Below, piece by piece: positions 4,057 through 38,456 of a stretch of DNA of 39,344 nucleotides (positions are counted from its first letter, which is position 1; each line of letters starts with the position of its first letter). Origin of the DNA: an uncultured Bacilli bacterium (GTDB taxonomy: Bacteria > Bacillota_I > Bacilli_A > RF39 > UBA660). A program made the position numbers and the translations under genes. The notes under the pieces were generated by a model. That model was not told where the DNA came from and made no database searches. It saw only the letters and a program-made list of their open reading frames with translations. Location of the stretch: contig CALVOC010000002.1 in assembly GCA_944350145.1 (NCBI GenBank), forward strand, positions 1 through 39,344. The letters are read 5' to 3'.

Positions 4057-4072
4057 TATTTCCCGGGAAATA
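4057..4072. promoter_or_regulatory. Noc-binding-site-like palindrome TATTTCCCGGGAAATA (perfect 16-mer), intergenic jag/mnmE
   Basis: Exact 16-bp palindrome read in the sequence. It is identical to the B. subtilis Noc-binding site (NBS) consensus, and CCCGGG is otherwise very rare in this AT-rich window. Confidence 0.6.
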
Positions 4073-6061: not shown

Positions 6062-6087
6062 TAAAAAAAGCCACATAAAAGATGTGG
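6062..6087 (-). terminator. Rho-independent terminator/attenuator between rpmH and rnpA
   Basis: On the minus strand the hairpin is CCACAU-CUUUU-AUGUGG, followed by CUUUUUUUAU, directly after the rpmH stop. Confidence 0.5.
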
Positions 6088-6088
6088 T

Positions 6089-6211
6089 TTATTTACATAA
6101 TACTTTGCGTCCTTTTTTTCTTCTTCTTTTTAAAATATTTGATTCTTTACGAGCAAAAAAACCATGTTTCTTTGCTTTTTTTCTTTTATTAGGTTGATAA
6201 GTTCCGATCAT
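6089..6211 (-). CDS. rpmH: 50S ribosomal protein L34 (short, 40 aa)
   Basis: My own translation of the minus strand gives MIGTYQPNKRKKAKKHGFFARKESNILKRRRKKGRKVLCK, with GGAGGG 7 nt upstream. It is too short to appear in the ORF track. Position is the canonical rpmH-rnpA arrangement facing dnaA. Confidence 0.85.
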   Translation of the reverse strand: MIGTYQPNKRKKAKKHGFFARKESNILKRRRKKGRKVLCK

Positions 6212-6315
6212 GACAATTCCCTCCTTTTTCTAAAGCTCTCTTATTATAATATTAAAAACTAGGAAAAGTCAACAATTTATGGGTTTTCTCCTTAATAATC
6301 TAATATTTTTTTTTA

Positions 6316-6526
6316 TGTGAATAAGTATCCACATTTTAAAAGATGTTTTTTTTCTGTATTTTTGAGTTTTTTCTTTAGTTATACACCTATTCACATCATG
6401 TGGATAACTTTTTTCGACATTATCCACTAATTCACAATTTATTTTTTTGGCTATTGTGAATAATGTGGATAACTGCATTTTTTTCTTTATTTTTCAGCTA
6501 TTATTTTGTTGATAAGTTGTGAATAG
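6316..6526. promoter_or_regulatory. oriC part 1: DnaA-box cluster upstream of dnaA
   Basis: Perfect TGTGGATAA at 6399-6407 and 6464-6472. TGTGAATAA at 6316-6324 and 6455-6463. One-mismatch boxes at 6325-6333, 6420-6428, 6507-6515 and 6518-6526. Located in the rpmH-dnaA intergenic region. Confidence 0.85.
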
Positions 6527-6609
6527 TATGTTAATATACATTTTAGTCTTTTAAAAAGATTTAAAAAAGTGTAGAATATTGTTGACAAGTTTTAAAGCGG
6601 GGTGGTTTC

Positions 6610-8007: not shown

Positions 8008-8150
8008 TGTGCATAAGTTTTAGAAATGTTCATAGTTATCCACGATAAAATTCGGCATTTTTTCTATTATTTAAGGGATTTTTAAAAGTTATCCACATTA
8101 TCCACCGTATTAATAATATGAATATATAAATATAATAATAAGAAAGAGGG
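8008..8150. promoter_or_regulatory. oriC part 2: DnaA boxes plus AT-rich unwinding element (dnaA-dnaN intergenic)
   Basis: Boxes TGTGCATAA 8008-8016, TTATCCACG 8036-8044, TTATCCACA 8089-8097 and the abutting TTATCCACC 8098-8106. These are followed by a roughly 40-bp, almost pure A/T stretch (8107-8145) before the dnaN RBS. Confidence 0.8.
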
Positions 8151-8156
8151 AAAGTT

Positions 8157-9380: not shown

Positions 9381-9842
9381 ATGAGAAAAGAATATGAAAT
9401 CAATGAAGAAACTTTAGCAATAATTGCTGTGGATAAGAACTATTCTGAGGTTTATGAGTTAAACGATCACTATGTTATTGAAAAAGGATCAAATAAAATT
9501 ATGGAAGATAGTTGCCGTTATTTTGGAAGTTCATTGGATGGCAGACGAAAAGGGACCGAATATATGATAGGCGTAAATTATAAAGCTCCTATTATTGTTG
9601 AAGAAACAAAAGAAATTATTTTTTTTCCGACATCTACATCTAGAGAAAATTGTAATTGGATTGGACTTAAACATATTAAATCCTATTATAGAGAAGGGGA
9701 AATTTTATTTATTGAGTTTGAAAATGATGTGAAAATTCCTTTAAGTGTTTCCTATGGGATAATCGATAATCAAGTTTTGCGTGCAAGTCGGTTAGAAAGT
9801 GCTTTACGTGGGCGAAAAATAGCAAAAAAATCTATTAAATAA
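9381..9842 (+). CDS. ComK-family protein (competence transcription factor-like), short form of 153 aa
   Basis: Block similarity to B. subtilis ComK as I recall it. SCRYFGSSLDGRRKGTEYMIGVNYKAPIIVEETKEIIFFPTSTSRENCNWIG aligns with SCRFFGSSYAGRKAGTYEVTKISHKPPIMVDPSNQIFLFPTLSSTRPQCGWI. SVSYGIIDNQVLRASRL aligns with PISYNSFENQVYRTAWL. It has its own RBS (GGGGGG) and terminators on both sides. Confidence 0.75.
   Translation: MRKEYEINEETLAIIAVDKNYSEVYELNDHYVIEKGSNKIMEDSCRYFGSSLDGRRKGTEYMIGVNYKAPIIVEETKEIIFFPTSTSRENCNWIGLKHIKSYYREGEILFIEFENDVKIPLSVSYGIIDNQVLRASRLESALRGRKIAKKSIK
9428..9436 (+). promoter_or_regulatory. Perfect DnaA box TGTGGATAA inside the comK-like CDS
   Basis: Read directly. It encodes A-V-D-K. 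Confidence 0.4.
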
Positions 9843-12951: not shown

Positions 12952-15417
12952 ATGGATCGTTTAGAAAAAAATAATATTGTTACAGAAGTTAGTAAGTCCT
13001 TTGTTGATTATTCTGTAAGTGTTATCACCTCACGTGCGTTGCCAGATTTACGAGATGGTTTAAAACCTGTTCATCGTAGAATTTTATTTTCTATGTATCA
13101 ATCTGGATATACGAATGATAAACAACATAAGAAATGTGCTCGTATTGTCGGGGATGTTATGGGTAAATTTCATCCTCATGGAGATTCTTCTATTTATGAA
13201 GCTATGGTTCGAATGGCTCAAGATTTCAGTTATCGTTATCCACTTATTGATGGTCATGGTAATTTTGGTAATATGGATGGTGATGGAGCAGCGGCAATGC
13301 GTTATACCGAGGCTCGATTGGCAAAAATTTCTTCAGAATTACTAAGGGATATTAATAAAAATACTGTAGATATGACTCCTAATTTTGATGAATTAGAGGA
13401 AGAACCAGTCGTTTTACCTAGTAGATTTCCAAATATTTTAGTAAATGGTACAATGGGAATTGCTGTAGGTATGGCAACAAATATTCCACCTCATAATTTA
13501 GGCGAGGTAATTGATGGATGTGTTGCATATATTGATAATCCAGAGATCGATACAATGGGATTAATGCAATATATTAAGGGACCAGATTTTCCAACAGGCG
13601 CTACAATTTTAGGAAATAGTGGTATTAAAAAAGCTTATGAAACCGGACGCGGCACTATTACTATTCGTAGTAAAGCCAGTATTGAAGAGAAAAATGGTCG
13701 TTTTCAAATCGTTTTTGATGAAGTTCCTTATGGTGTGAATACCTTAGAGTTGAAGAATAAGGTTGCTGAACTTGTTCATAATAAAGTAATAGAGGGAATT
13801 TCAGATTATCATTCTGATTTAAAGGATGGTATTAAAATTACAATAACTTTAAAAAGGGATGCTAATCCACAAGTTGTTTTAAATAATTTGTATAAACATA
13901 CATCTTTCCAAATTTCTTATGGAATTATTTTATTAATGATTGATCAAGGAGTTCCTAAAACGTTAGGATTGAAAGATATAATAAGTAAATACATTGATTT
14001 TCAACGAGAAGTAATTGTAAGAAGAACTCGTTTTGATTTAGAAAAAGCAGAAGCTCGTGTTCATATTTTACAAGGATTGAAGATAGCTTTAGATCATATT
14101 GATGAAGTAATTAAGATTATTCGCGGAAGTAGAACAGATGTTGAGGCTAAAGAGACTTTAATGAGTCGTTTTGGGCTTTCTGAAATTCAAAGCGATGCTA
14201 TTTTGGAAATGAGATTACGTCGTTTAACTGGTTTAGAAAAGGATAAAATTGAAGCCGAATTAGCTGAATTATTAAAGAAAATTGAAGAATATAAGGCTAT
14301 TTTAGCAAGTGATGAAAAGGTATTAGCTATTATTCGAGCAGAATTACTAGAAATAAAGGATAAATATGCAGATGAACGTCGTACAAATATTGATATGACT
14401 GCAATTGAGTATATTGAGGATGAATCCTTAATTCCAGAAGAAAATATCATGGTGGCTTTAACTAATAAGGGTTATATTAAAAGAACTACTACAGATACCT
14501 TTAAAGCACAAAATAGAGGCGGAGTTGGAGTTAAAGGTATGGCCACAAATGAAGAAGATTTTGTTGAACATTTGCTAAACTTATCCACACATGATTATGT
14601 ATTATTCTTTACAAATAAAGGTAAGGTTTATCGTTTGAAAGGTTATGAGATTCCTGAATTTAGTCGTCAATCTAAGGGAATTCCAGTTATTAACTTATTG
14701 CAAATTGATAAAGATGAATCTATTAATTCTATAATTCGTATTGATAAAGATAATAAGTATAAGTATTTATTATTTGCAACGAAGAAGGGTATTGTTAAGA
14801 AAACTTCTATTGAGGAGTTTGATAATATTCGAACTAATGGTAAGATTTGTATAACATTGAGAGAATCTGATGAATTAATTAGTGTTCGTAAAACTACTGG
14901 TAATGATCTTATTTTACTAGGTTCTAGTGCTGGTAGAATGGTAAAATTTAATGAAAATGAACTTAGAGTAATGGGAAGAACTGCAAGTGGTGTACGGGGT
15001 ATCAATTTAGATGGCACTGACTGCATTGGTGCTGAAATAGCTTCGGATGATGACAAAATTTTAATAGTAACTGAAAAAGGGTACGGAAAGCAAACAAATG
15101 TTCGTGAATACCGCCAGACAAGTCGTGGTAGTAAAGGGGTAAAGGCATTAAATATTACAGATAAAAATGGATCTATTGCTTCCTTTAAATTAGTTGGTGA
15201 AAATAGTGATGTTGTTATTATAACTAATACTGGAATGCTGATTCGTTTACCTTTGGATCAAGTTTCTACTTTAGGTCGTGTTACCCAGGGTGTGCGATTG
15301 ATTCACTTGAAGGATAACCAATCTGTTTCTACTGTTAGTATTGTGGAACATGAAGAAAAAGTGGATTACGACGTAGATGAATCAAATAATTCTAATAATG
15401 AAGAGAAATCTGAATAA
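12952..15417 (+). CDS. gyrA: DNA gyrase subunit A
   Basis: 821-aa ORF with the active-site region [10 protein letters not shown], the QRDR-like [13 protein letters not shown] and C-terminal beta-pinwheel repeats. Confidence 0.97.
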
Positions 15418-15430
15418 GATTTCTTTTTTA

Positions 15431-15446
15431 TGTTTCACGTGAAACA
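15431..15446. promoter_or_regulatory. parS-1 TGTTTCACGTGAAACA
   Basis: Perfect match to TGTTNCACGTGAAACA. Confidence 0.85.
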
Positions 15447-15456
15447 TATCTATAAA

Positions 15457-15472
15457 TATTTCCCGGGAAATA
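15457..15472. promoter_or_regulatory. NBS-like palindrome TATTTCCCGGGAAATA (perfect), between parS-1 and parS-2
   Basis: Exact 16-mer. It starts 11 nt after the end of parS-1 and is followed 5 nt later by TGTGAATAA (15478-15486). Confidence 0.6.
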
Positions 15473-15490
15473 AAATATGTGAATAACCAA

Positions 15491-15506
15491 TGTTCCACGT
15501 GAAACA
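15491..15506. promoter_or_regulatory. parS-2 TGTTCCACGTGAAACA
   Basis: Perfect match, identical to the B. subtilis consensus site. Confidence 0.85.
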
Positions 15507-15606
15507 TTGATTTATAATTTTAAACTTATTAAGCGAAAAATATTTATTTTTTTAATAAAAAAGAAATTTATTTTATTGTAGTATACATATAAAAGTTGAT
15601 AACTAA

Positions 15607-15622
15607 TGTTTCACGTGAAACG
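15607..15622. promoter_or_regulatory. parS-3 TGTTTCACGTGAAACG
   Basis: 15/16 match (last base G). Confidence 0.75.
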
Positions 15623-15709
15623 TATGAATTATTAAATAAAAATTATTTAATTATATTTTAGATTATTTTTCTTTTAAATCTTATAAATCCTTTATGTTTA
15701 TAACCATGA

Positions 15710-15725
15710 TGTTTCACGTGAAACA
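15710..15725. promoter_or_regulatory. parS-4 TGTTTCACGTGAAACA
   Basis: Perfect match. Confidence 0.85.
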
Positions 15726-15835
15726 TTCTATTTCTTGTTAGAAATAATGTAAAAATTTATTTTTTTTGATTCATTCTTATTTAAAAAATTCGTTTTTAAT
15801 TATAAATAATTAAATAATAAAGTGTATAACTGTTA

Positions 15836-15851
15836 TGTTCCACGTGAAACA
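15836..15851. promoter_or_regulatory. parS-5 TGTTCCACGTGAAACA
   Basis: Perfect match. Confidence 0.85.
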
Positions 15852-16019
15852 TAATACAAATTGTTATATAAACCATTAAATAGAGTATAATAAAAAATAT
15901 GTAAGTTTTTTTGTTAAAATTAAAGTTTAAATCAAAAAAATTGCATTTTTTCATACTATTTATTTAATCATAAATTTTTAAAATTAACTAATATGTAAAA
16001 TAGAAGTTTATAACTATGA

Positions 16020-16035
16020 TGTTTCACGTGGAACA
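16020..16035. promoter_or_regulatory. parS-6 TGTTTCACGTGGAACA
   Basis: Perfect match on the opposite strand (reverse complement is TGTTCCACGTGAAACA). Confidence 0.85.
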
Positions 16036-16043
16036 TATGTAAT

Positions 16044-16059
16044 TATTTCCTGGGAAATA
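16044..16059. promoter_or_regulatory. NBS-like palindrome TATTTCCTGGGAAATA (15/16), next to parS-6
   Basis: One C-to-T change from the perfect 16-mer. It is followed 2 nt later by TGTGAATAA (16062-16070). Confidence 0.45.
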
Positions 16060-16122
16060 TTTGTGAATAACAATTTTTTTAACATTTTTAAACAAAATTG
16101 AGGTATTTTTGTGTATAACCAA

Positions 16123-16138
16123 TGTTTCACGTGAAACG
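16123..16138. promoter_or_regulatory. parS-7 TGTTTCACGTGAAACG
   Basis: 15/16 match (last base G). Confidence 0.75.
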
Positions 16139-16185
16139 TTGATAATTTATGCTTGCATTTTTACTTTATTTTTGATAATCTTAAT

Positions 16186-16262
16186 TTGTGCAACAAATAT
16201 ATTGTAATCTGGTCAGGATCGGAAGATAGCAGCCACGTCAATCCCTATTTGTGTGCACTTTT
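16186..16262 (+). ncRNA. ffs: Signal recognition particle RNA, minimal 4.5S-like form (about 75 nt)
   Basis: Conserved helix-8 core CUGGUCAGGAUCGGAAGAUAGCAGCCACG, comparable to E. coli 4.5S GGUCAGGUCCGGAAGGAAGCAGCC, with a GGAA tetraloop. The closing stem pairs GUGCAACAAAUA with UAUUUGUGUGCAC and is followed by a U-run. It lies beside tadA and upstream of dnaX, close to the tadA-scr-dnaX arrangement in Bacillus. The ends are approximate. Confidence 0.7.
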
Positions 16263-16279
16263 TTATTGGAGGAATTTAA

Positions 16280-16693
16280 GTGGATAAATATATAGATGTG
16301 TGTTTGGATGAAGCCAGGATTAGTTATCAACAATCTGATGTTCCAATTGGAGCAATTATTGTAAAAAATGGTGAAATTATTGCAAAATCGCATAATACTA
16401 GGGAAATGGATAAGTCTATTCTTGGTCATGCTGAAATTAATGCAATTTTAAGTGCTTCTAAACTATTAAATCGCTGGAATTTGAGTGATTGTGAGCTTTA
16501 TGTAACTTTAAAACCTTGTTCTATGTGTATGGAAGTTATTAAACAGTCCAGAATAGGCAAAATTTACTATTTATTAGACAAATTAGATTATAAAAAAGAG
16601 TTTACTAAAAGTGAATTTATTAAAATTAATGAAAAAGAAAGCGAACAAACGTATCAAAAAATGCTTTCAGATTTTTTTAAAGATAAAAGATAA
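16280..16693 (+). CDS. tadA: tRNA-specific adenosine deaminase TadA
   Basis: GTG start with GGAGG upstream. CDA zinc motifs HAEINAI and PCSMCMEVI. Confidence 0.9.
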   Translation: MDKYIDVCLDEARISYQQSDVPIGAIIVKNGEIIAKSHNTREMDKSILGHAEINAILSASKLLNRWNLSDCELYVTLKPCSMCMEVIKQSRIGKIYYLLDKLDYKKEFTKSEFIKINEKESEQTYQKMLSDFFKDKR

Positions 16694-18397: not shown

Positions 18398-18694
18398 ATG
18401 AATATGCAAAGTATAATGGCTCAAGCACAAAGAATGCAAAGAGATTTACAAAAGAAAAAAGATGAAATTAATGCTCAATTATTTCCTGGGAAATATGAAT
18501 TTGTTGAAGTTACCTTGAATGGAAAAAAGGAAATGGTTCGTTGTAAGATTAATAAAGAATCAATTGATGCTTCAGATATGGAATTATTAGAAGATTTTAT
18601 TGTTTTGGCTACGAAAGATGCTATTCAAAAAATTGACAAAGAGTTTCAAGCTAAAATGGGTCAATACGCAGGAATGCTTGACGGTTTGATGTAA
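18398..18694 (+). CDS. ybaB: Nucleoid-associated protein YbaB/EbfC (YaaK)
   Basis: 98-aa ORF between dnaX and recF's partner recR, starting MNMQSIMAQAQRMQRDLQKKKDE, which is typical of the family. Confidence 0.9.
   Translation: MNMQSIMAQAQRMQRDLQKKKDEINAQLFPGKYEFVEVTLNGKKEMVRCKINKESIDASDMELLEDFIVLATKDAIQKIDKEFQAKMGQYAGMLDGLM
18480..18495. promoter_or_regulatory. NBS-like palindrome TATTTCCTGGGAAATA (15/16) inside ybaB
   Basis: Read directly. It encodes L-F-P-G-K-Y. Confidence 0.4.
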
Positions 18695-21182: not shown

Positions 21183-21876
21183 TTGGTTGTTTGATTATCC
21201 CAATCTAAAAATATATCAATATGAAGAAGGTTTTAAATTTTCTTTAGATTCTATTTTATTAGCTGAATTTGCCGAAATAAGAAAAAATGATAACAAAATA
21301 TTAGATTTATGTACGGGTAATGCTGTTATTCCTATTATTTTAAATTATAAATATCATAAGTCTATTATTGCGGTCGAAGTTCAGCCACAAATTGTAGAGC
21401 TTGCTAAGGCTTCAATTTATGAAAATCATATGGAAAATGCTATTCAAATAGTAGAAAAAAATGTGTTGGAATTGGAAAATTATTTCCCGGGAAATAATTT
21501 TGATGTTCTTTTATCAAATCCACCATATTTTAAATTTCATCATGAAGATTTTTTAAATCATAACAAATTAAAACAAATTGCCCGTCATGAAGTTTTAATT
21601 GATTTAGAATCTTTAATTCGGATTGCTTCTATTTTATTGAAAACTAAAGGAAGATTTTATTTGGTTCATATTCCAAATCGTTTGGATGAAATAATTGTTT
21701 TTGCACATAAATATCATTTTGGCATAAAAAAGGTTCAATTTATCCATTCTAAAATGGAAGAATCTCCAATTATTGTTTTAGTATGTTTAGTTAAAAATGG
21801 TAAATTTGGGTGTATTGTTAAACCTCCTATTTCAATAAATGGTTTAGAAACGTATCAAAATTTATTTAAGAATTGA
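21166..21876 (+). CDS. tRNA1(Val) (adenine37-N6)-methyltransferase-like (YabB/TrmN6 family)
   Basis: N6-adenine methyltransferase motif LSNPPYF and a SAM-binding region ILDLCTGNAV. The position is equivalent to yabB. Confidence 0.8.
   Translation: MKKQLNWLFDYPNLKIYQYEEGFKFSLDSILLAEFAEIRKNDNKILDLCTGNAVIPIILNYKYHKSIIAVEVQPQIVELAKASIYENHMENAIQIVEKNVLELENYFPGNNFDVLLSNPPYFKFHHEDFLNHNKLKQIARHEVLIDLESLIRIASILLKTKGRFYLVHIPNRLDEIIVFAHKYHFGIKKVQFIHSKMEESPIIVLVCLVKNGKFGCIVKPPISINGLETYQNLFKN
21481..21496. promoter_or_regulatory. NBS-like palindrome TATTTCCCGGGAAATA (perfect) inside the methyltransferase CDS
   Basis: Read directly. It encodes Y-F-P-G-N. Confidence 0.55.
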
Positions 21877-26287: not shown

Positions 26288-26487
26288 TAATCAATGAGGA
26301 AGGAAAGAGTATATAATTATTTCTTTATTAGAGAGTTTATGGTTGGTGAAAATAAACAAAGGAAAATTATAGAAGATGGCTCTGGAGTTGAAACGTTATC
26401 TCGCGTTAAGGGTAAAGTGCATGAATTATCATGAAATAAGGTGGTACCACGGGTTTTTATTCGTCCTTATGTTCATGATTTTTTTAT
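26288..26487 (+). promoter_or_regulatory. T-box riboswitch leader (probable Met specifier AUG) controlling metG
   Basis: AGAGAG/GGUUGGUG stem I elements. Candidate specifier AUG at 26376-26378. Conserved T-box sequence AAAUAAGGUGGUACCACGG at 26434-26452. The terminator helix pairs AUCAUGAAAUAAGG with CCUUAUGUUCAUGAU and is followed by a U7 run. Confidence 0.8.
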
Positions 26488-26504: not shown

Positions 26505-28055
26505 ATGGAAAAGTTTTATATTACAACCGCGATTGCTTACGCATCTGGAAAACCACATATTGGCAATACTTATGAAATTGTTTTGGCAGACGCAATTGCT
26601 CGTTATAAAAGATTAAAAGGTTTTGATGTTTATTTTCAAACCGGAACAGATGAACATGGTGAAAAAATTGAGGGAAAGGCTCTAGAAAATGGTCAAACTC
26701 CTCAAGAATTTGTCGATAATATTTCCCGGGAAATAAAAAGAATTTGGGATGTGATGAATACTAGTTATGATAAATTTGTACGAACTACAGATGAACATCA
26801 TAAAAAAATAGTACAGCATATTTTTCAAAAACTATATGATCAAGGTGATATTTATTTGGATCAATATGAGGGATGGTATTGTACTCCTTGTGAGTCGTTT
26901 TGGACAGATAATCAACTTGTAGATGGAAAATGCCCAGATTGTGGTAGAGAAGTAAAAAAAAGAAGTGAAGAATCCTATTTTTTTAGAATGTCTAAGTATC
27001 AAGATCGGTTGATTGAATATATTGAAAATCATCCAGAATTTATTCAGCCAGAAGCTCGTAAAAATGAAATGATTAATAATTTTTTGAAACCAGGTTTACA
27101 AGATTTGTGTGTTTCTAGAACTTCTTTTGATTGGGGTATTCGAGTTCCTTTTAATGATAAGCATATCGTTTATGTTTGGATTGATGCTTTGTCTAACTAT
27201 ATTACTAATATTGGTTATGATACTGATGGAGGAGATGATACTTTTAAAAAATGGTGGCCTGCTGATTTACATTTAGTTGGTAAGGATATTATTCGTTTTC
27301 ATACTATTTATTGGCCAATTTTATTAATGGCATTAGATTTACCTTTACCTAAACAAGTTTTTGGGCATCCTTGGCTTTTGATGAATAACGATAAAATGAG
27401 TAAGAGTAAAGGAAATATTATGTATGCAGATGATTTAGTTTCGTTGTTTGGAGTTGATGCAATTCGGTATTATTTGTTGCATGAAATTCCTTTTCAAAGT
27501 GATGGAACGATTTCTTATGAGCTTATCATTGAACGTATTAATAGTGATTTAGCTAATATTTTAGGAAATTTAGTAAATCGAACAATTTCAATGGCTAAGA
27601 AATATTTTGACGGAGAAATTGAAAATAAAAAAATTTTAGAAGATATGGACTCTTCATATATTGAAATGATCAATAGTTTAGAAGAACGCGTTGAAAAAAG
27701 AATGTTTAAATTAGAGATAGGTTCTGCACTTGATGAAATTTTTGATACTTTACGAGCTAGTAATAAATATATAGATGATACTATGCCTTGGAGTCTTGCT
27801 AAGGAAGAAACAAAACGAGATCGTTTAGAAACTGTATTATATAATTTATTAGAAGGTATTCAAGTTTGTGCTGTTTTTCTAAAGCCATTTTTGCCCGCTA
27901 CTTCAGATGAAATTTTTAGACAATTACAAACGAATAATTTATCGTTTTGCTTTATAAATGATCATAAATATTGTGTATTGGATCCGACTCCTATTTTTAT
28001 GAGAATTGATAGTTCTAAAAAACTTGCTGAAATAGCAGCGAATAAGGAAGAGTAA
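26505..28055 (+). CDS. metG: Methionine--tRNA ligase
   Basis: The real start is ATG 26505 (MEKFYITTAIAYASGKPHIGN). Class I HIGN and KMSKS motifs are present, with zinc knuckles CTPC and CPDC. The ORF-track start at 26376 runs through the T-box leader. Confidence 0.95.
   Translation: MEKFYITTAIAYASGKPHIGNTYEIVLADAIARYKRLKGFDVYFQTGTDEHGEKIEGKALENGQTPQEFVDNISREIKRIWDVMNTSYDKFVRTTDEHHKKIVQHIFQKLYDQGDIYLDQYEGWYCTPCESFWTDNQLVDGKCPDCGREVKKRSEESYFFRMSKYQDRLIEYIENHPEFIQPEARKNEMINNFLKPGLQDLCVSRTSFDWGIRVPFNDKHIVYVWIDALSNYITNIGYDTDGGDDTFKKWWPADLHLVGKDIIRFHTIYWPILLMALDLPLPKQVFGHPWLLMNNDKMSKSKGNIMYADDLVSLFGVDAIRYYLLHEIPFQSDGTISYELIIERINSDLANILGNLVNRTISMAKKYFDGEIENKKILEDMDSSYIEMINSLEERVEKRMFKLEIGSALDEIFDTLRASNKYIDDTMPWSLAKEETKRDRLETVLYNLLEGIQVCAVFLKPFLPATSDEIFRQLQTNNLSFCFINDHKYCVLDPTPIFMRIDSSKKLAEIAANKEE
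26720..26735. promoter_or_regulatory. NBS-like palindrome TATTTCCCGGGAAATA (perfect) inside metG
   Basis: Read directly. It encodes N-I-S-R-E-I, a different codon phase from the copies in ybaB and the methyltransferase gene. Confidence 0.55.
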
Positions 28056-36555: not shown

Positions 36556-37605
36556 TTATTTCAGGTAATTAACTGCCTCTATAAGTTCTTCTATATCTTT
36601 ATGAGTATAAACTTTATCTGTTATATCTGTACTAGCATGTCCCATTATTCTTTTTATACATAATTTATTAGCAGGTGTTCTGTCCATACGAGTGGCAAAA
36701 GTATGTCTTGTGTCATGAGGTTTATGATTTTTTGAAAACTCTAACTGTTCCATCATAATATCCCATTTTTCTCTTCTATAATTAGAGTATTTCATTTGTT
36801 TGCCTAAAGAATTAACGATTAAATAATCGCATTCAACTTCAACTGCTTTATCATAATATCTTTGGATAAGTGGTATTATTCTTTTATGAAGTGGTATTAC
36901 TCTATCTATTCCTGCTTCTGTTTTTAATCCACCGATCATATATTCTTTATCAATATGAACATTTTCAATTTTAATGTCTAATAATTCGCTTATTCTTAAG
37001 CCTGTGTAAATAAGTATCAATATAGTATCAATAAAATCCATTCTGTCGATATTTTCCCATAACTTGTCTATTTCTTCTTCCTCAAATGGTATTCGTACTA
37101 ATTTGGTCGTTTTTTTGCCTATGTCGATGTATTCTGAATATTTTTTAACATCTATATCATGTTTAATTGCATAATCGTACATTTGATGCCACATAATTTT
37201 GAATGCTTTTTTTGCACTCCATTTATCACCCATGCCATCAACTATTGCTTGCAAATGAGTTAGTCTAACATCGACAAACGGTATATCTTTTATATCTTGA
37301 CAATAATTCCAACACATATTGTATACTTGATGTGTTTTTTTAGAAATTTTAGGATATTTTTCATCTTGCCATTTTTGGTGAAGTTCTTCAACGGTTATTT
37401 TTTTAGCATCAATGTTATAAGGATTTTCATTAAATAATGCTAATGCTTGTAATGCTTGCTGTCTTGTTTCAAAATATCCAATAGTTTGCCTCTTTTGTAC
37501 TCCGTTTTCATTCCATCCAATAGTTTTTCTTACTCTATAAGGGTTTCTTCTATTTCCTGATAATTTTTCGATTATTCCGTAGTTATTAGGTAGTTTTATA
37601 AGACA
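36556..37605 (-). CDS. int: Phage tyrosine integrase. The reading frame is open for 349 codons but has no in-frame ATG at its 5' end.
   Basis: Catalytic residues are TGLRISELL (Arg), HDTRHTFATR (H-x-x-R) and HASTDITDKVYTH (Tyr). My translation upstream of the ORF-track ATG (37317) stays open and reads KLPNNYGIIEKLSGNRRNPYRVRKTIGWNENGVQKRQTIGYFETRQQALQALALFNENPYN, a typical integrase N-terminal domain. The SD-preceded ATG at 37606 is in a different frame (see findings). Confidence 0.85.
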   Translation of the reverse strand, partial: CLIKLPNNYGIIEKLSGNRRNPYRVRKTIGWNENGVQKRQTIGYFETRQQALQALALFNENPYNIDAKKITVEELHQKWQDEKYPKISKKTHQVYNMCWNYCQDIKDIPFVDVRLTHLQAIVDGMGDKWSAKKAFKIMWHQMYDYAIKHDIDVKKYSEYIDIGKKTTKLVRIPFEEEEIDKLWENIDRMDFIDTILILIYTGLRISELLDIKIENVHIDKEYMIGGLKTEAGIDRVIPLHKRIIPLIQRYYDKAVEVECDYLIVNSLGKQMKYSNYRREKWDIMMEQLEFSKNHKPHDTRHTFATRMDRTPANKLCIKRIMGHASTDITDKVYTHKDIEELIEAVNYLK

Positions 37606-37689
37606 TCACCACCTAAATGTAGATTGTATTTCATATATCAAAATCCTCCTATTTCTTGTGTTTTTCTTTTGCTTTTGATATAATGAAAT

Positions 37690-37792
37690 AGAAAAATCCA
37701 TAACATTATATCTTATATTTTGTTTTTTAGTTTTGCGGACTAAAAGTGATTTTTCATTCAAGACTTACTGTTCGAGCAGTAGGTCTTTTTTT
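37690..37792 (+). ncRNA. Candidate prophage small RNA of about 100 nt (promoter plus intrinsic terminator, no ORF)
   Basis: -35 TTGTGT at 37656-37661, 17-bp spacer, extended -10 TGATATAAT at 37676-37684. The terminator is an 11-bp stem, AAGACTTACTG/CAGTAGGTCTT (37760-37787), followed by a T-run. The transcript would contain the 23-nt element at 37723-37745. Confidence 0.35.
37723..37745 (+). repeat. Copy A of a 23-bp perfect inverted repeat (TTTTTTAGTTTTGCGGACTAAAA)
   Basis: It is the exact reverse complement of 38849-38871. Confidence 0.9.
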
Positions 37793-38456
37793 ATTCTTCC
37801 ATATAACTTATGCTGGAAATTTTTACTCTAGCGATACCAATTACTTTGACTGGCAAGTTTATTATTTCTTCTTTAGTATATGACGTAGGAAGATATCCAT
37901 CATCATTTTCAATATTTAGTGGTATTAATCTAATACCGTCTTCTTTTAATTTAAGAACCTTGAAAGTTGCATCGTCACCATTTACCATCACGCAGCAATC
38001 TTTATTATTGGCATATTGAAAATCATTTGTTTCTTCAAAAATAACGGTATCATTTGGCATATACTTCGGGCTCATGCTATTACCACTAATTTTTAAACCA
38101 TAATATTTTTTACTTTGCCTTATCCATTCTTTTGGTATTTCTACATAATCTAAAATATCTTCTTGTGCTTCAATTGGTGTACCTGCTTTTATCACTCCTA
38201 AAACTGGCACTTTCACTCTCTCTACATTTAAGTCGATTAATTCGGCATTATCAAATCTTAAATCTGAGCCTATGAAGTCGGGAACGGGAACGTCGAGTGC
38301 TTCTGCTACCTTTATTACATTTTCAACTGTCGTATCCATTCCTTTTTCCCATAGTGAGATAGTAGATTGATCAACGCCAATTTTTTTGGCTAATTCTTTT
38401 TGAGAGATCCCTTTTTGTTTTCTGATATATGGAAGATTATTATTGAAGTAACTCAT
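37791..38456 (-). CDS. Phage repressor, XRE-type HTH fused to an S24 (LexA/CI-like) autopeptidase domain
   Basis: The N-terminal HTH reads KGISQKELAKKIGVDQSTISLWEKG. The C-terminal S24 domain has ISGNSMSP (Ser) and TFKVLKL (Lys). It is divergent from the cro-like gene. Confidence 0.85.
   Translation of the reverse strand: MSYFNNNLPYIRKQKGISQKELAKKIGVDQSTISLWEKGMDTTVENVIKVAEALDVPVPDFIGSDLRFDNAELIDLNVERVKVPVLGVIKAGTPIEAQEDILDYVEIPKEWIRQSKKYYGLKISGNSMSPKYMPNDTVIFEETNDFQYANNKDCCVMVNGDDATFKVLKLKEDGIRLIPLNIENDDGYLPTSYTKEEIINLPVKVIGIARVKISSISYMEE

Follow-up and report, generated by a model that had tools for sequence, protein, structure and literature searches.

The DNA considered here is a 39,344-base metagenomic contig from an uncultured Bacilli bacterium (CALVOC010000002.1, positions 1-39,344, hereafter called the window), in which seven parS sites are packed into the non-coding spacer between gyrA and ffs, the gene of the small signal recognition particle (SRP) RNA. 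From the sequence and its conservation in relatives, we consider this island likely to be the chromosomal centromere of the lineage, namely an origin-proximal ParB loading array of canonical parS in the gyrA-ffs spacer. The sites match the 16-bp palindromic consensus TGTTNCACGTGAAACA with at most one mismatch. They are located as follows.

15431..15446, no strand: parS 1, TGTTTCACGTGAAACA, perfect; it starts 13 nt past the gyrA stop codon and is invariant in an alignment of five species.
15491..15506, no strand: parS 2, TGTTCCACGTGAAACA, perfect; invariant in the five-species alignment.
15607..15622, no strand: parS 3, TGTTTCACGTGAAACG, one mismatch, at the last base.
15710..15725, no strand: parS 4, TGTTTCACGTGAAACA, perfect.
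15836..15851, no strand: parS 5, TGTTCCACGTGAAACA, perfect; present in the five-species alignment.
16020..16035, no strand: parS 6, TGTTTCACGTGGAACA, perfect on the minus strand; present in the five-species alignment.
16123..16138, no strand: parS 7, TGTTTCACGTGAAACG, one mismatch; approximately 40 nt before ffs and at the same place in 5/5 aligned species.

Between positions 15431 and 16138, five of the seven sites are perfect matches to the consensus on one strand and two are off at the last base, with coordinates and sequences all as given in the original prediction. The accompanying statement that no parS-like copy occurs elsewhere in the 39 kb holds even at a looser threshold, and none was found in the window outside the island with up to two mismatches allowed. 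Counted by strand, 14 matches were observed in the window, compared with 0.09 expected from dinucleotide-preserving shuffles, and the density within the island is approximately 10 parS per kb. The sites have the sequence of canonical parS and are confined within the window to one origin-proximal non-coding island. The spacers between consecutive sites are 44, 100, 87, 110, 168, and 87 bp long with an A+T content of 85%, and the longest open reading frame (ORF) touching the island encodes 52 aa, in agreement with the earlier description of A/T-rich spacers of 44-168 bp and no ORF of 60 aa or more. The array of the window has no tandem period, and its start-to-start spacing is irregular (60-184 bp). 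Direct repeats of 23-34 nt surround the parS sites and show local duplication.

We also considered whether the island yields an RNA or a protein and rejected this. No Rfam family was matched in the island, the sole Rfam match nearby being ffs itself; the ORFs do not exceed 52 aa, and promoter-like sites are not enriched. The sole predicted "terminator" in the island is parS 7.

The array is conserved among relatives. Species-representative genomes were scanned with DnaA, which gave 80 loci from metagenome-assembled genomes (MAGs) of uncultured gut Bacilli/"Tenericutes" with 61-97% DnaA identity, including Ca. Ventrenecus, Ca. Caccenecus, and Mycoplasma sp. CAG:776. All complete gyrA-tadA spacers (51/51) contain parS, with 2-14 sites each in spacers of 233-2043 bp, and every locus that extends beyond the gyrA 3' end carries parS there, except for L064, in which the contig stops approximately 200 bp after gyrA. 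Whether the array is conserved or expands and contracts among related gyrA-ffs regions was a question raised with the original prediction, and the comparison of these regions indicates both. In all sequence examined, the sites are restricted to this one locus. Beyond the gyrA-tadA spacer, only five parS-like matches were found in approximately 1.4 Mb. They come from three loci and lie just downstream of the spacer, and three of them represent one shared position with one mismatch inside dnaX, at offset +224 (L050 19678, L058 20224, and L066 19612). This 16-mer may have arisen by chance in the coding sequence or may be an additional site.

The consensus over 300 sites in the relatives is A-TGTT(T/C)CACGTG(A/G)AACA-T, in which the 16-mer is near-invariant except for positions 5/12 and the end bases. 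Outside the 16-mer, strong conservation is limited to the flanking A(-1)/T(+16), and C(-3) is weakly conserved. A "TATAAC" flank of the window was also weighed as a co-factor site common to the lineage but discarded, because A(-1)/T(+16) alone are strong over these sites; part of this flank in the window is due to the DnaA boxes described below. In the five-species alignment, which has a mean column identity of only 60%, the parS blocks are invariant within unalignable A+T spacers and ffs is almost identical. The sites are thus conserved against fully diverged spacers. Because parS has been kept in every complete spacer while the spacer sequence diverged, the array is real, under purifying selection, and fixed in position.

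The parS copy number changes through local duplication or loss. In L017 (18990-19530), 13.5 units of 40 bp with 95% identity and one parS per unit form a regular tandem array, and higher-order duplications are found in the arrays of L012 and L016. The range of 2-14 copies among close relatives offers a natural series on the benefit of extra parS to a cell. MAG contigs frequently break inside or at the array (L013, L018, and L054), and the parS repeats and the low-complexity noc-like gene appear to disrupt short-read assembly. The array accounts for the frequent contig breaks after gyrA in this lineage. These breaks and the unstable copy number would also suit a selfish or accidental repeat family, similar to miniature inverted-repeat transposable elements (MITE) or repetitive extragenic palindromes (REP), or an assembly artefact, with no centromere function. 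However, the array occupies the same locus in 51/51 species, down to 61% DnaA identity and in many independent assemblies. The conserved part is only a palindrome of 16-18 bp and no longer element, it has no copies elsewhere in the window, and its sequence is the universal parS consensus. We therefore regard a selfish or artefactual origin as extremely improbable, effectively refuted by the conservation in relatives and the five-species alignment. As a predicted centromere, the array would serve as a clear landmark throughout this uncultured gut Bacilli group of order level, which is related to RFN20, Ca. Ventrenecus, and "Mycoplasma sp. CAG:776", and it would help to locate oriC in MAGs.

The island is embedded in the following genes and origin elements of the window.

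12952..15417, plus strand: gyrA (NF004043, 1159 bits), the left boundary of the island.
16179..16274, plus strand: ffs (small SRP RNA), the right boundary of the island.
16280-16693: tadA, after ffs and with dnaX next.
6077..6609, no strand: oriC in the rnpA/rpmH-dnaA spacer, with a DnaA-box cluster and the GC-skew switch.
8008-8156: the second half of oriC, in the dnaA-dnaN spacer.

Left of oriC, the minus strand carries rsmG, mnmG, mnmE, jag, yidC, and rnpA. To the right, the plus strand carries dnaA, dnaN, a comK-like gene, recF, gyrB, and gyrA, followed by the island, ffs, tadA, dnaX, ybaB, recR, and more genes. The GC skew changes its sign at approximately 6 kb, and the DnaA boxes of oriC cluster at 6316-6472 and 8008-8097. 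Because the skew switch and the box clusters place oriC here, the island is located on the right replichore, separated by 7.3 kb from the dnaA-dnaN spacer and by 8.8 kb from the sequence upstream of dnaA. Gene order, GC skew, and DnaA boxes all bear out the earlier placement of the island in the gyrA-ffs spacer at about 7.3 kb from oriC. The left end of the window lies 23 nt past rsmG, and two more assemblies of the same organism (L001 and L002) end there too.

Three other features of the window were observed. A ComK-family gene lies between dnaN and recF (9381-9842, plus strand) and is kept in relatives (L083 283-729); Bacillus has the small S4-like yaaA/rlbA gene at this position. A T-box leader (113.5 bits; 26288-26471, plus strand) is found upstream of the methionyl-tRNA synthetase gene. 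Near the right contig end, a phage-type integrase and an S24/LexA-like HTH repressor are encoded on the opposite strand (36556-38456, minus strand) with a local GC-skew reversal, and this region probably represents a prophage or an integrative element.

If the island functions as a centromere, each parS would load sliding clamps of ParB (Spo0J-type) bound to cytidine triphosphate (CTP). The seven loading sites in 0.7 kb would multiply the loading rate and produce one large ParB-DNA complex, and the presence of several sites would stabilise its condensation. In vitro, both the clamp-loading rate and the condensation force increase with the number of parS (PMC8299390). The complex would be expected to spread over the neighbouring 10-30 kb, including oriC at a distance of 7-9 kb, and to mark the origin for segregation, most likely by recruiting SMC-ScpAB. 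ParA may be dispensable in this system, because no ParA gene was seen near oriC. The system of Streptococcus pneumoniae works without ParA.

The island also contains two other types of sites, which were absent from the original prediction. The first is the Noc-binding site (NBS), with the consensus 16-mer TATTTCCCGGGAAATA (PMC7383237), and the second is the DnaA box, counted with the motif TTATNCACA.

15457..15472, no strand: NBS, TATTTCCCGGGAAATA, perfect; between parS 1 and parS 2.
16044..16059, no strand: NBS-like site, TATTTCCTGGGAAATA, one mismatch; 8 nt after parS 6.
15478..15486, minus strand: DnaA box, TTATTCACA; 4 nt before parS 2.
16062..16070, minus strand: DnaA box, TTATTCACA; 2 nt beyond the second NBS.
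16110..16118, minus strand: DnaA box, TTATACACA; 4 nt before parS 7.
4057-4072, 18480-18495, 21481-21496, and 26720-26735: further NBS in the window.

With a GC content of 28.5%, the window contains six NBS (four perfect and two with one mismatch) compared with 0.00 by chance, a density of approximately 1 per 6.5 kb, and two of them are inside the island. Related loci contain 78 NBS in 1.38 Mb, with several conserved positions, such as the jag-mnmE spacer. A module of NBS, DnaA box, and parS spans 15457-15506 in the window and recurs in L015 and L016. Because NBS and DnaA boxes interleave with parS, the spacer is probably also visited by the Noc-type protein of the lineage (discussed below) and DnaA. 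The 16-mers are divided into 248 pure parS and 66 pure NBS, and no hybrid half-sites were found, which points to two distinct specific binders.

The gyrA-tadA spacers of the relatives contain 78 DnaA boxes in 46 kb, compared with 3.75 in shuffles. Their density in the spacers is 1.9 per kb, approximately 8-fold that of other non-coding DNA of the same loci (0.23 per kb), and 6.7 per kb are found upstream of dnaA. At least one box is present in 36/48 spacers, frequently 12 nt before a parS. The island is thereby predicted to be a DnaA-box cluster outside oriC, the enrichment of which is conserved among relatives. This enrichment and the fixed distance of 12 nt would also be compatible with a spacer that is primarily regulatory, acting in DnaA titration or positioning and/or as a ParB/Noc operator for ffs-tadA-dnaX, with parS as an accessory. 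The last parS adjoins the ffs promoter region in all five aligned species, and most of the metagenomic arrays listed below occupy the parAB promoter region, where ParB autoregulation is usual. However, 12 of the 48 spacers have no perfect DnaA box (e.g., L017, which has 14 parS), whereas parS is found in all 51 complete spacers. Compared with oriC, the spacers have a 3.5-fold lower box density, and promoter-like sites are not enriched in the island. In addition, the box counts are not independent, because the boxes were copied together with parS in duplicated units. We consider a primarily regulatory spacer unlikely.

The evidence that weighs against a ParB loading array concerns the ParB gene itself. 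In the relatives, rsmG is directly followed by a gene for a protein of 340-404 aa with ParB_N and HTH_ParB domains, exemplified by the following Noc-type genes.

L005 2046-3257, minus strand: Noc-type ParB-family gene.
L012 376-1590, minus strand: Noc-type ParB-family gene.
L083 10001-11020, plus strand: Noc-type ParB-family gene.

As the window contig ends shortly after rsmG, the position of this gene is beyond its end. A tblastn search with a ParB-family query over the 1.38 Mb of oriC-region loci detected one ParB-family gene per genome, after rsmG, and the same search detected no ParA/Soj. Neither ParA nor ParB was found in the 10 kb further left, beyond the noc-like gene (context of P0098), and no canonical ParB was found in the window. 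In the interval of about -13 to +33 kb relative to dnaA, the searches revealed neither a canonical ParB nor a ParA, and the only ParB-family gene detected is approximately 15 kb from the array, across oriC from it. In the CAG:776 group, the left flank is rearranged and contains no ParB-family gene. The supplement of PMC10868615 has no entries for spo0J, soj, or parB.

The rsmG-adjacent protein is of the Noc type in its sequence features. For its homologues, we took the best 120 matches (with the N-terminal 202 aa as the query) and the best 150 from 1.84 billion representatives, comprising 269 sequences in total; all of those listed are orthologues of the Noc-type family. The residues at the specificity positions 173/179/184/201 are RTAG in ParB and QKKR in Noc (Jalal et al., PMC7383237). 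The listed homologues have Q-K-[N/S/T/A]-R in 260 of the 269 sequences, the other nine being outside the search pattern, and R173 is present in none. The best match in the PDB is Noc (7NG0, 196 bits vs 164-173 bits for Spo0J), and the best NCBIfam model is nucleoid_noc (TIGR04285, 270-285 bits, below the cut-off of 315, vs 177-186 bits for the generic parB_part). parS was preferred by all 17 ParBs tested, and binding to it requires R173, which is invariable in parS-specific variants, whereas Q173 and R201 read NBS-specific bases, with Q173 directed to the NBS adenine (PMC7383237). Because it has Q173 and R201 and no R173, the Noc-type protein should bind to NBS, not parS.

This protein has further peculiar features. 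The ORFs start approximately 16 residues before a PNRFQPR motif and cannot be extended, which leaves no room for an N-terminal membrane helix. The lineage thus has a Noc-type protein without the membrane helix that defines Noc function. The low-complexity linker is 100-700 aa long, giving a protein length of approximately 340-980 aa among the listed homologues, and it contains a conserved motif, PNKFFN(F/Y)LEDExxNM (core NKFFNFLEDE), which is reminiscent of FSRFFGLGE in the N-terminal part of B. subtilis Noc.

The searches around oriC raise the question of whether canonical ParB, and ParA with it, was lost in the lineage. In that case, the array would be bound by a dual-specificity Noc-type paralogue, helix-less and with a long linker, acting in a second binding mode, or by another, unrelated factor, which would read parS in the modules of NBS, DnaA box, and parS. 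The region of about -13 to +33 kb around dnaA shows only the Noc-type gene and no ParA, and the gene order rsmG-noc-soj-spo0J of B. subtilis, which we take as ancestral, stops after the noc-like gene. NBS and parS are 8-35 bp apart in the conserved module. Moreover, position 184 is N/S/T/A instead of the lysine that is near-invariant in Noc, and the mutational landscape of ParB includes 82 dual-specificity variants (PMC7383237). If true, Noc-type clamps, DnaA, and centromere function would be coupled at a single locus, which would be an origin-organising centre of a new kind. However, R173 is invariable in parS-specific variants (PMC7383237), and 260/260 scored homologues have Q173 and R201. 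The sharp separation of the parS and NBS motifs is as expected for two proteins, and absence near oriC does not equal absence from the genome. The 16-mer is also identical to the consensus read by ParB across bacteria. We consider such a loss of ParB decidedly unlikely. Because the universal parS consensus is strictly conserved, a canonical ParB is very likely encoded in the genome, and we continue with the ParB loading array as the preferred explanation.

Dense parS arrays are not peculiar to this lineage. A metagenome scan for three parS no more than 45 nt apart (within approximately 140 bp) detected at least 120 loci, with GC contents of 25-67% and a maximum of 17 sites per locus. Among the 120 loci listed, 67 have parA/parB within 600 bp, 8 belong to the gyrA-linked lineage, and 2 adjoin dnaA; most of the arrays listed occupy the parAB promoter region. 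The proximity of parA/parB to 67 of these loci ties triple-parS arrays to ParB systems in general. In a cursory look, no obvious parB was found near low-GC arrays without gyrA (L109 and L112). Several unrelated metagenomic contigs were observed with particularly large arrays: L091 (1044-2012) has 15 parS in 1 kb at approximately 1 kb from dnaA with a GC content of 35%, and L122 and L189 (2508-3948) have 17 parS each. Myxococcus xanthus has 24 parS, most of them within 3 kb and approximately 30 kb from oriC, and its ParB forms a single 33-kb peak centred on the parS cluster (PMC3778016, bioRxiv 10.1101/2021.05.05.442810). In gut Firmicutes, several parS per 5-kb bin are common (PMC10197239).

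The original prediction had assumed that chromosomal parS sites are single and scattered, which would make the island exceptional; the 24 sites of M. xanthus, the clusters of gut Firmicutes, and the metagenomic loci contradict this. Its proposal of an exceptionally strong ParB nucleation point is retained in part. A strong point is consistent with the conservation of the array in relatives and with the faster clamp loading by more parS in vitro (PMC8299390), whereas the word "exceptionally" does not stand, given how common dense arrays are. This abundance corrects the picture derived from B. subtilis.

The island partly resembles several known systems. In B. subtilis, the Noc-NBS system uses the same NBS 16-mer as found in the island and elsewhere in the window, and the paralogue of the relatives shares Q173, K179, and R201 with Noc. 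In contrast to B. subtilis Noc, the protein of the relatives lacks the N-terminal extension for a membrane-targeting helix, has N/S/T/A at residue 184, contains the NKFFNFLEDE motif in a low-complexity linker, and scores under the NCBIfam cut-off for Noc.

The F-plasmid centromere sopC consists of 12 tandem 43-bp repeats bound by SopB. It is similar to the island in having iterated sites for a ParB-family protein in a short non-coding stretch, and L017 (13.5 x 40 bp) has a very similar architecture. However, the array of the window is irregular, uses the chromosomal parS rather than a plasmid-specific site, lies in a core context (gyrA, ffs, and dnaX), and has no adjacent partition operon. Regular head-to-tail units next to partition genes, as in a plasmid-type iterated centromere, were not found in the window, and a regular unit was found in L017 only. 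The earlier comparison with a plasmid-style centromere is not supported by the missing tandem period, the irregular spacing, and the core chromosomal context.

The metagenomic parA-parB-linked arrays also have at least three canonical parS at distances of up to 45 nt. In contrast to the many listed arrays that accompany parA/parB, the lineage of the window places its array after gyrA, and parA and parB do not adjoin the parS cluster in the lineage loci examined, as they would in an operon-linked ParABS centromere.

B. subtilis has ten dispersed parS sites, which are single, mostly intragenic, and distributed over hundreds of kb. The Spo0J-parS system of this species shares the identical 16-bp site with the island, TGTTCCACGTGAAACA being the optimal B. 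subtilis parS (PMC8299390). Both also belong to the class Bacilli and have an origin-proximal bias and the same gene order in the oriC region. The two differ in that all detectable sites of the window are in one spacer and in that the usual soj-spo0J pair does not follow noc in the lineage.

The M. xanthus cluster is likewise a dense group of canonical parS near oriC on a chromosome, at approximately 8 per kb compared with approximately 10 per kb in the window. The M. xanthus array is directly upstream of parAB and its ParA is essential, whereas the array of the window lineage is located between gyrA and ffs, and no parA/parB is found within approximately 13 kb left or 33 kb right of dnaA. Dense chromosomal parS arrays are therefore a common design, usually found in the parAB promoter region, and the array of the window is another example; its position between gyrA and ffs and its detachment from any par operon are what is particular to this lineage.

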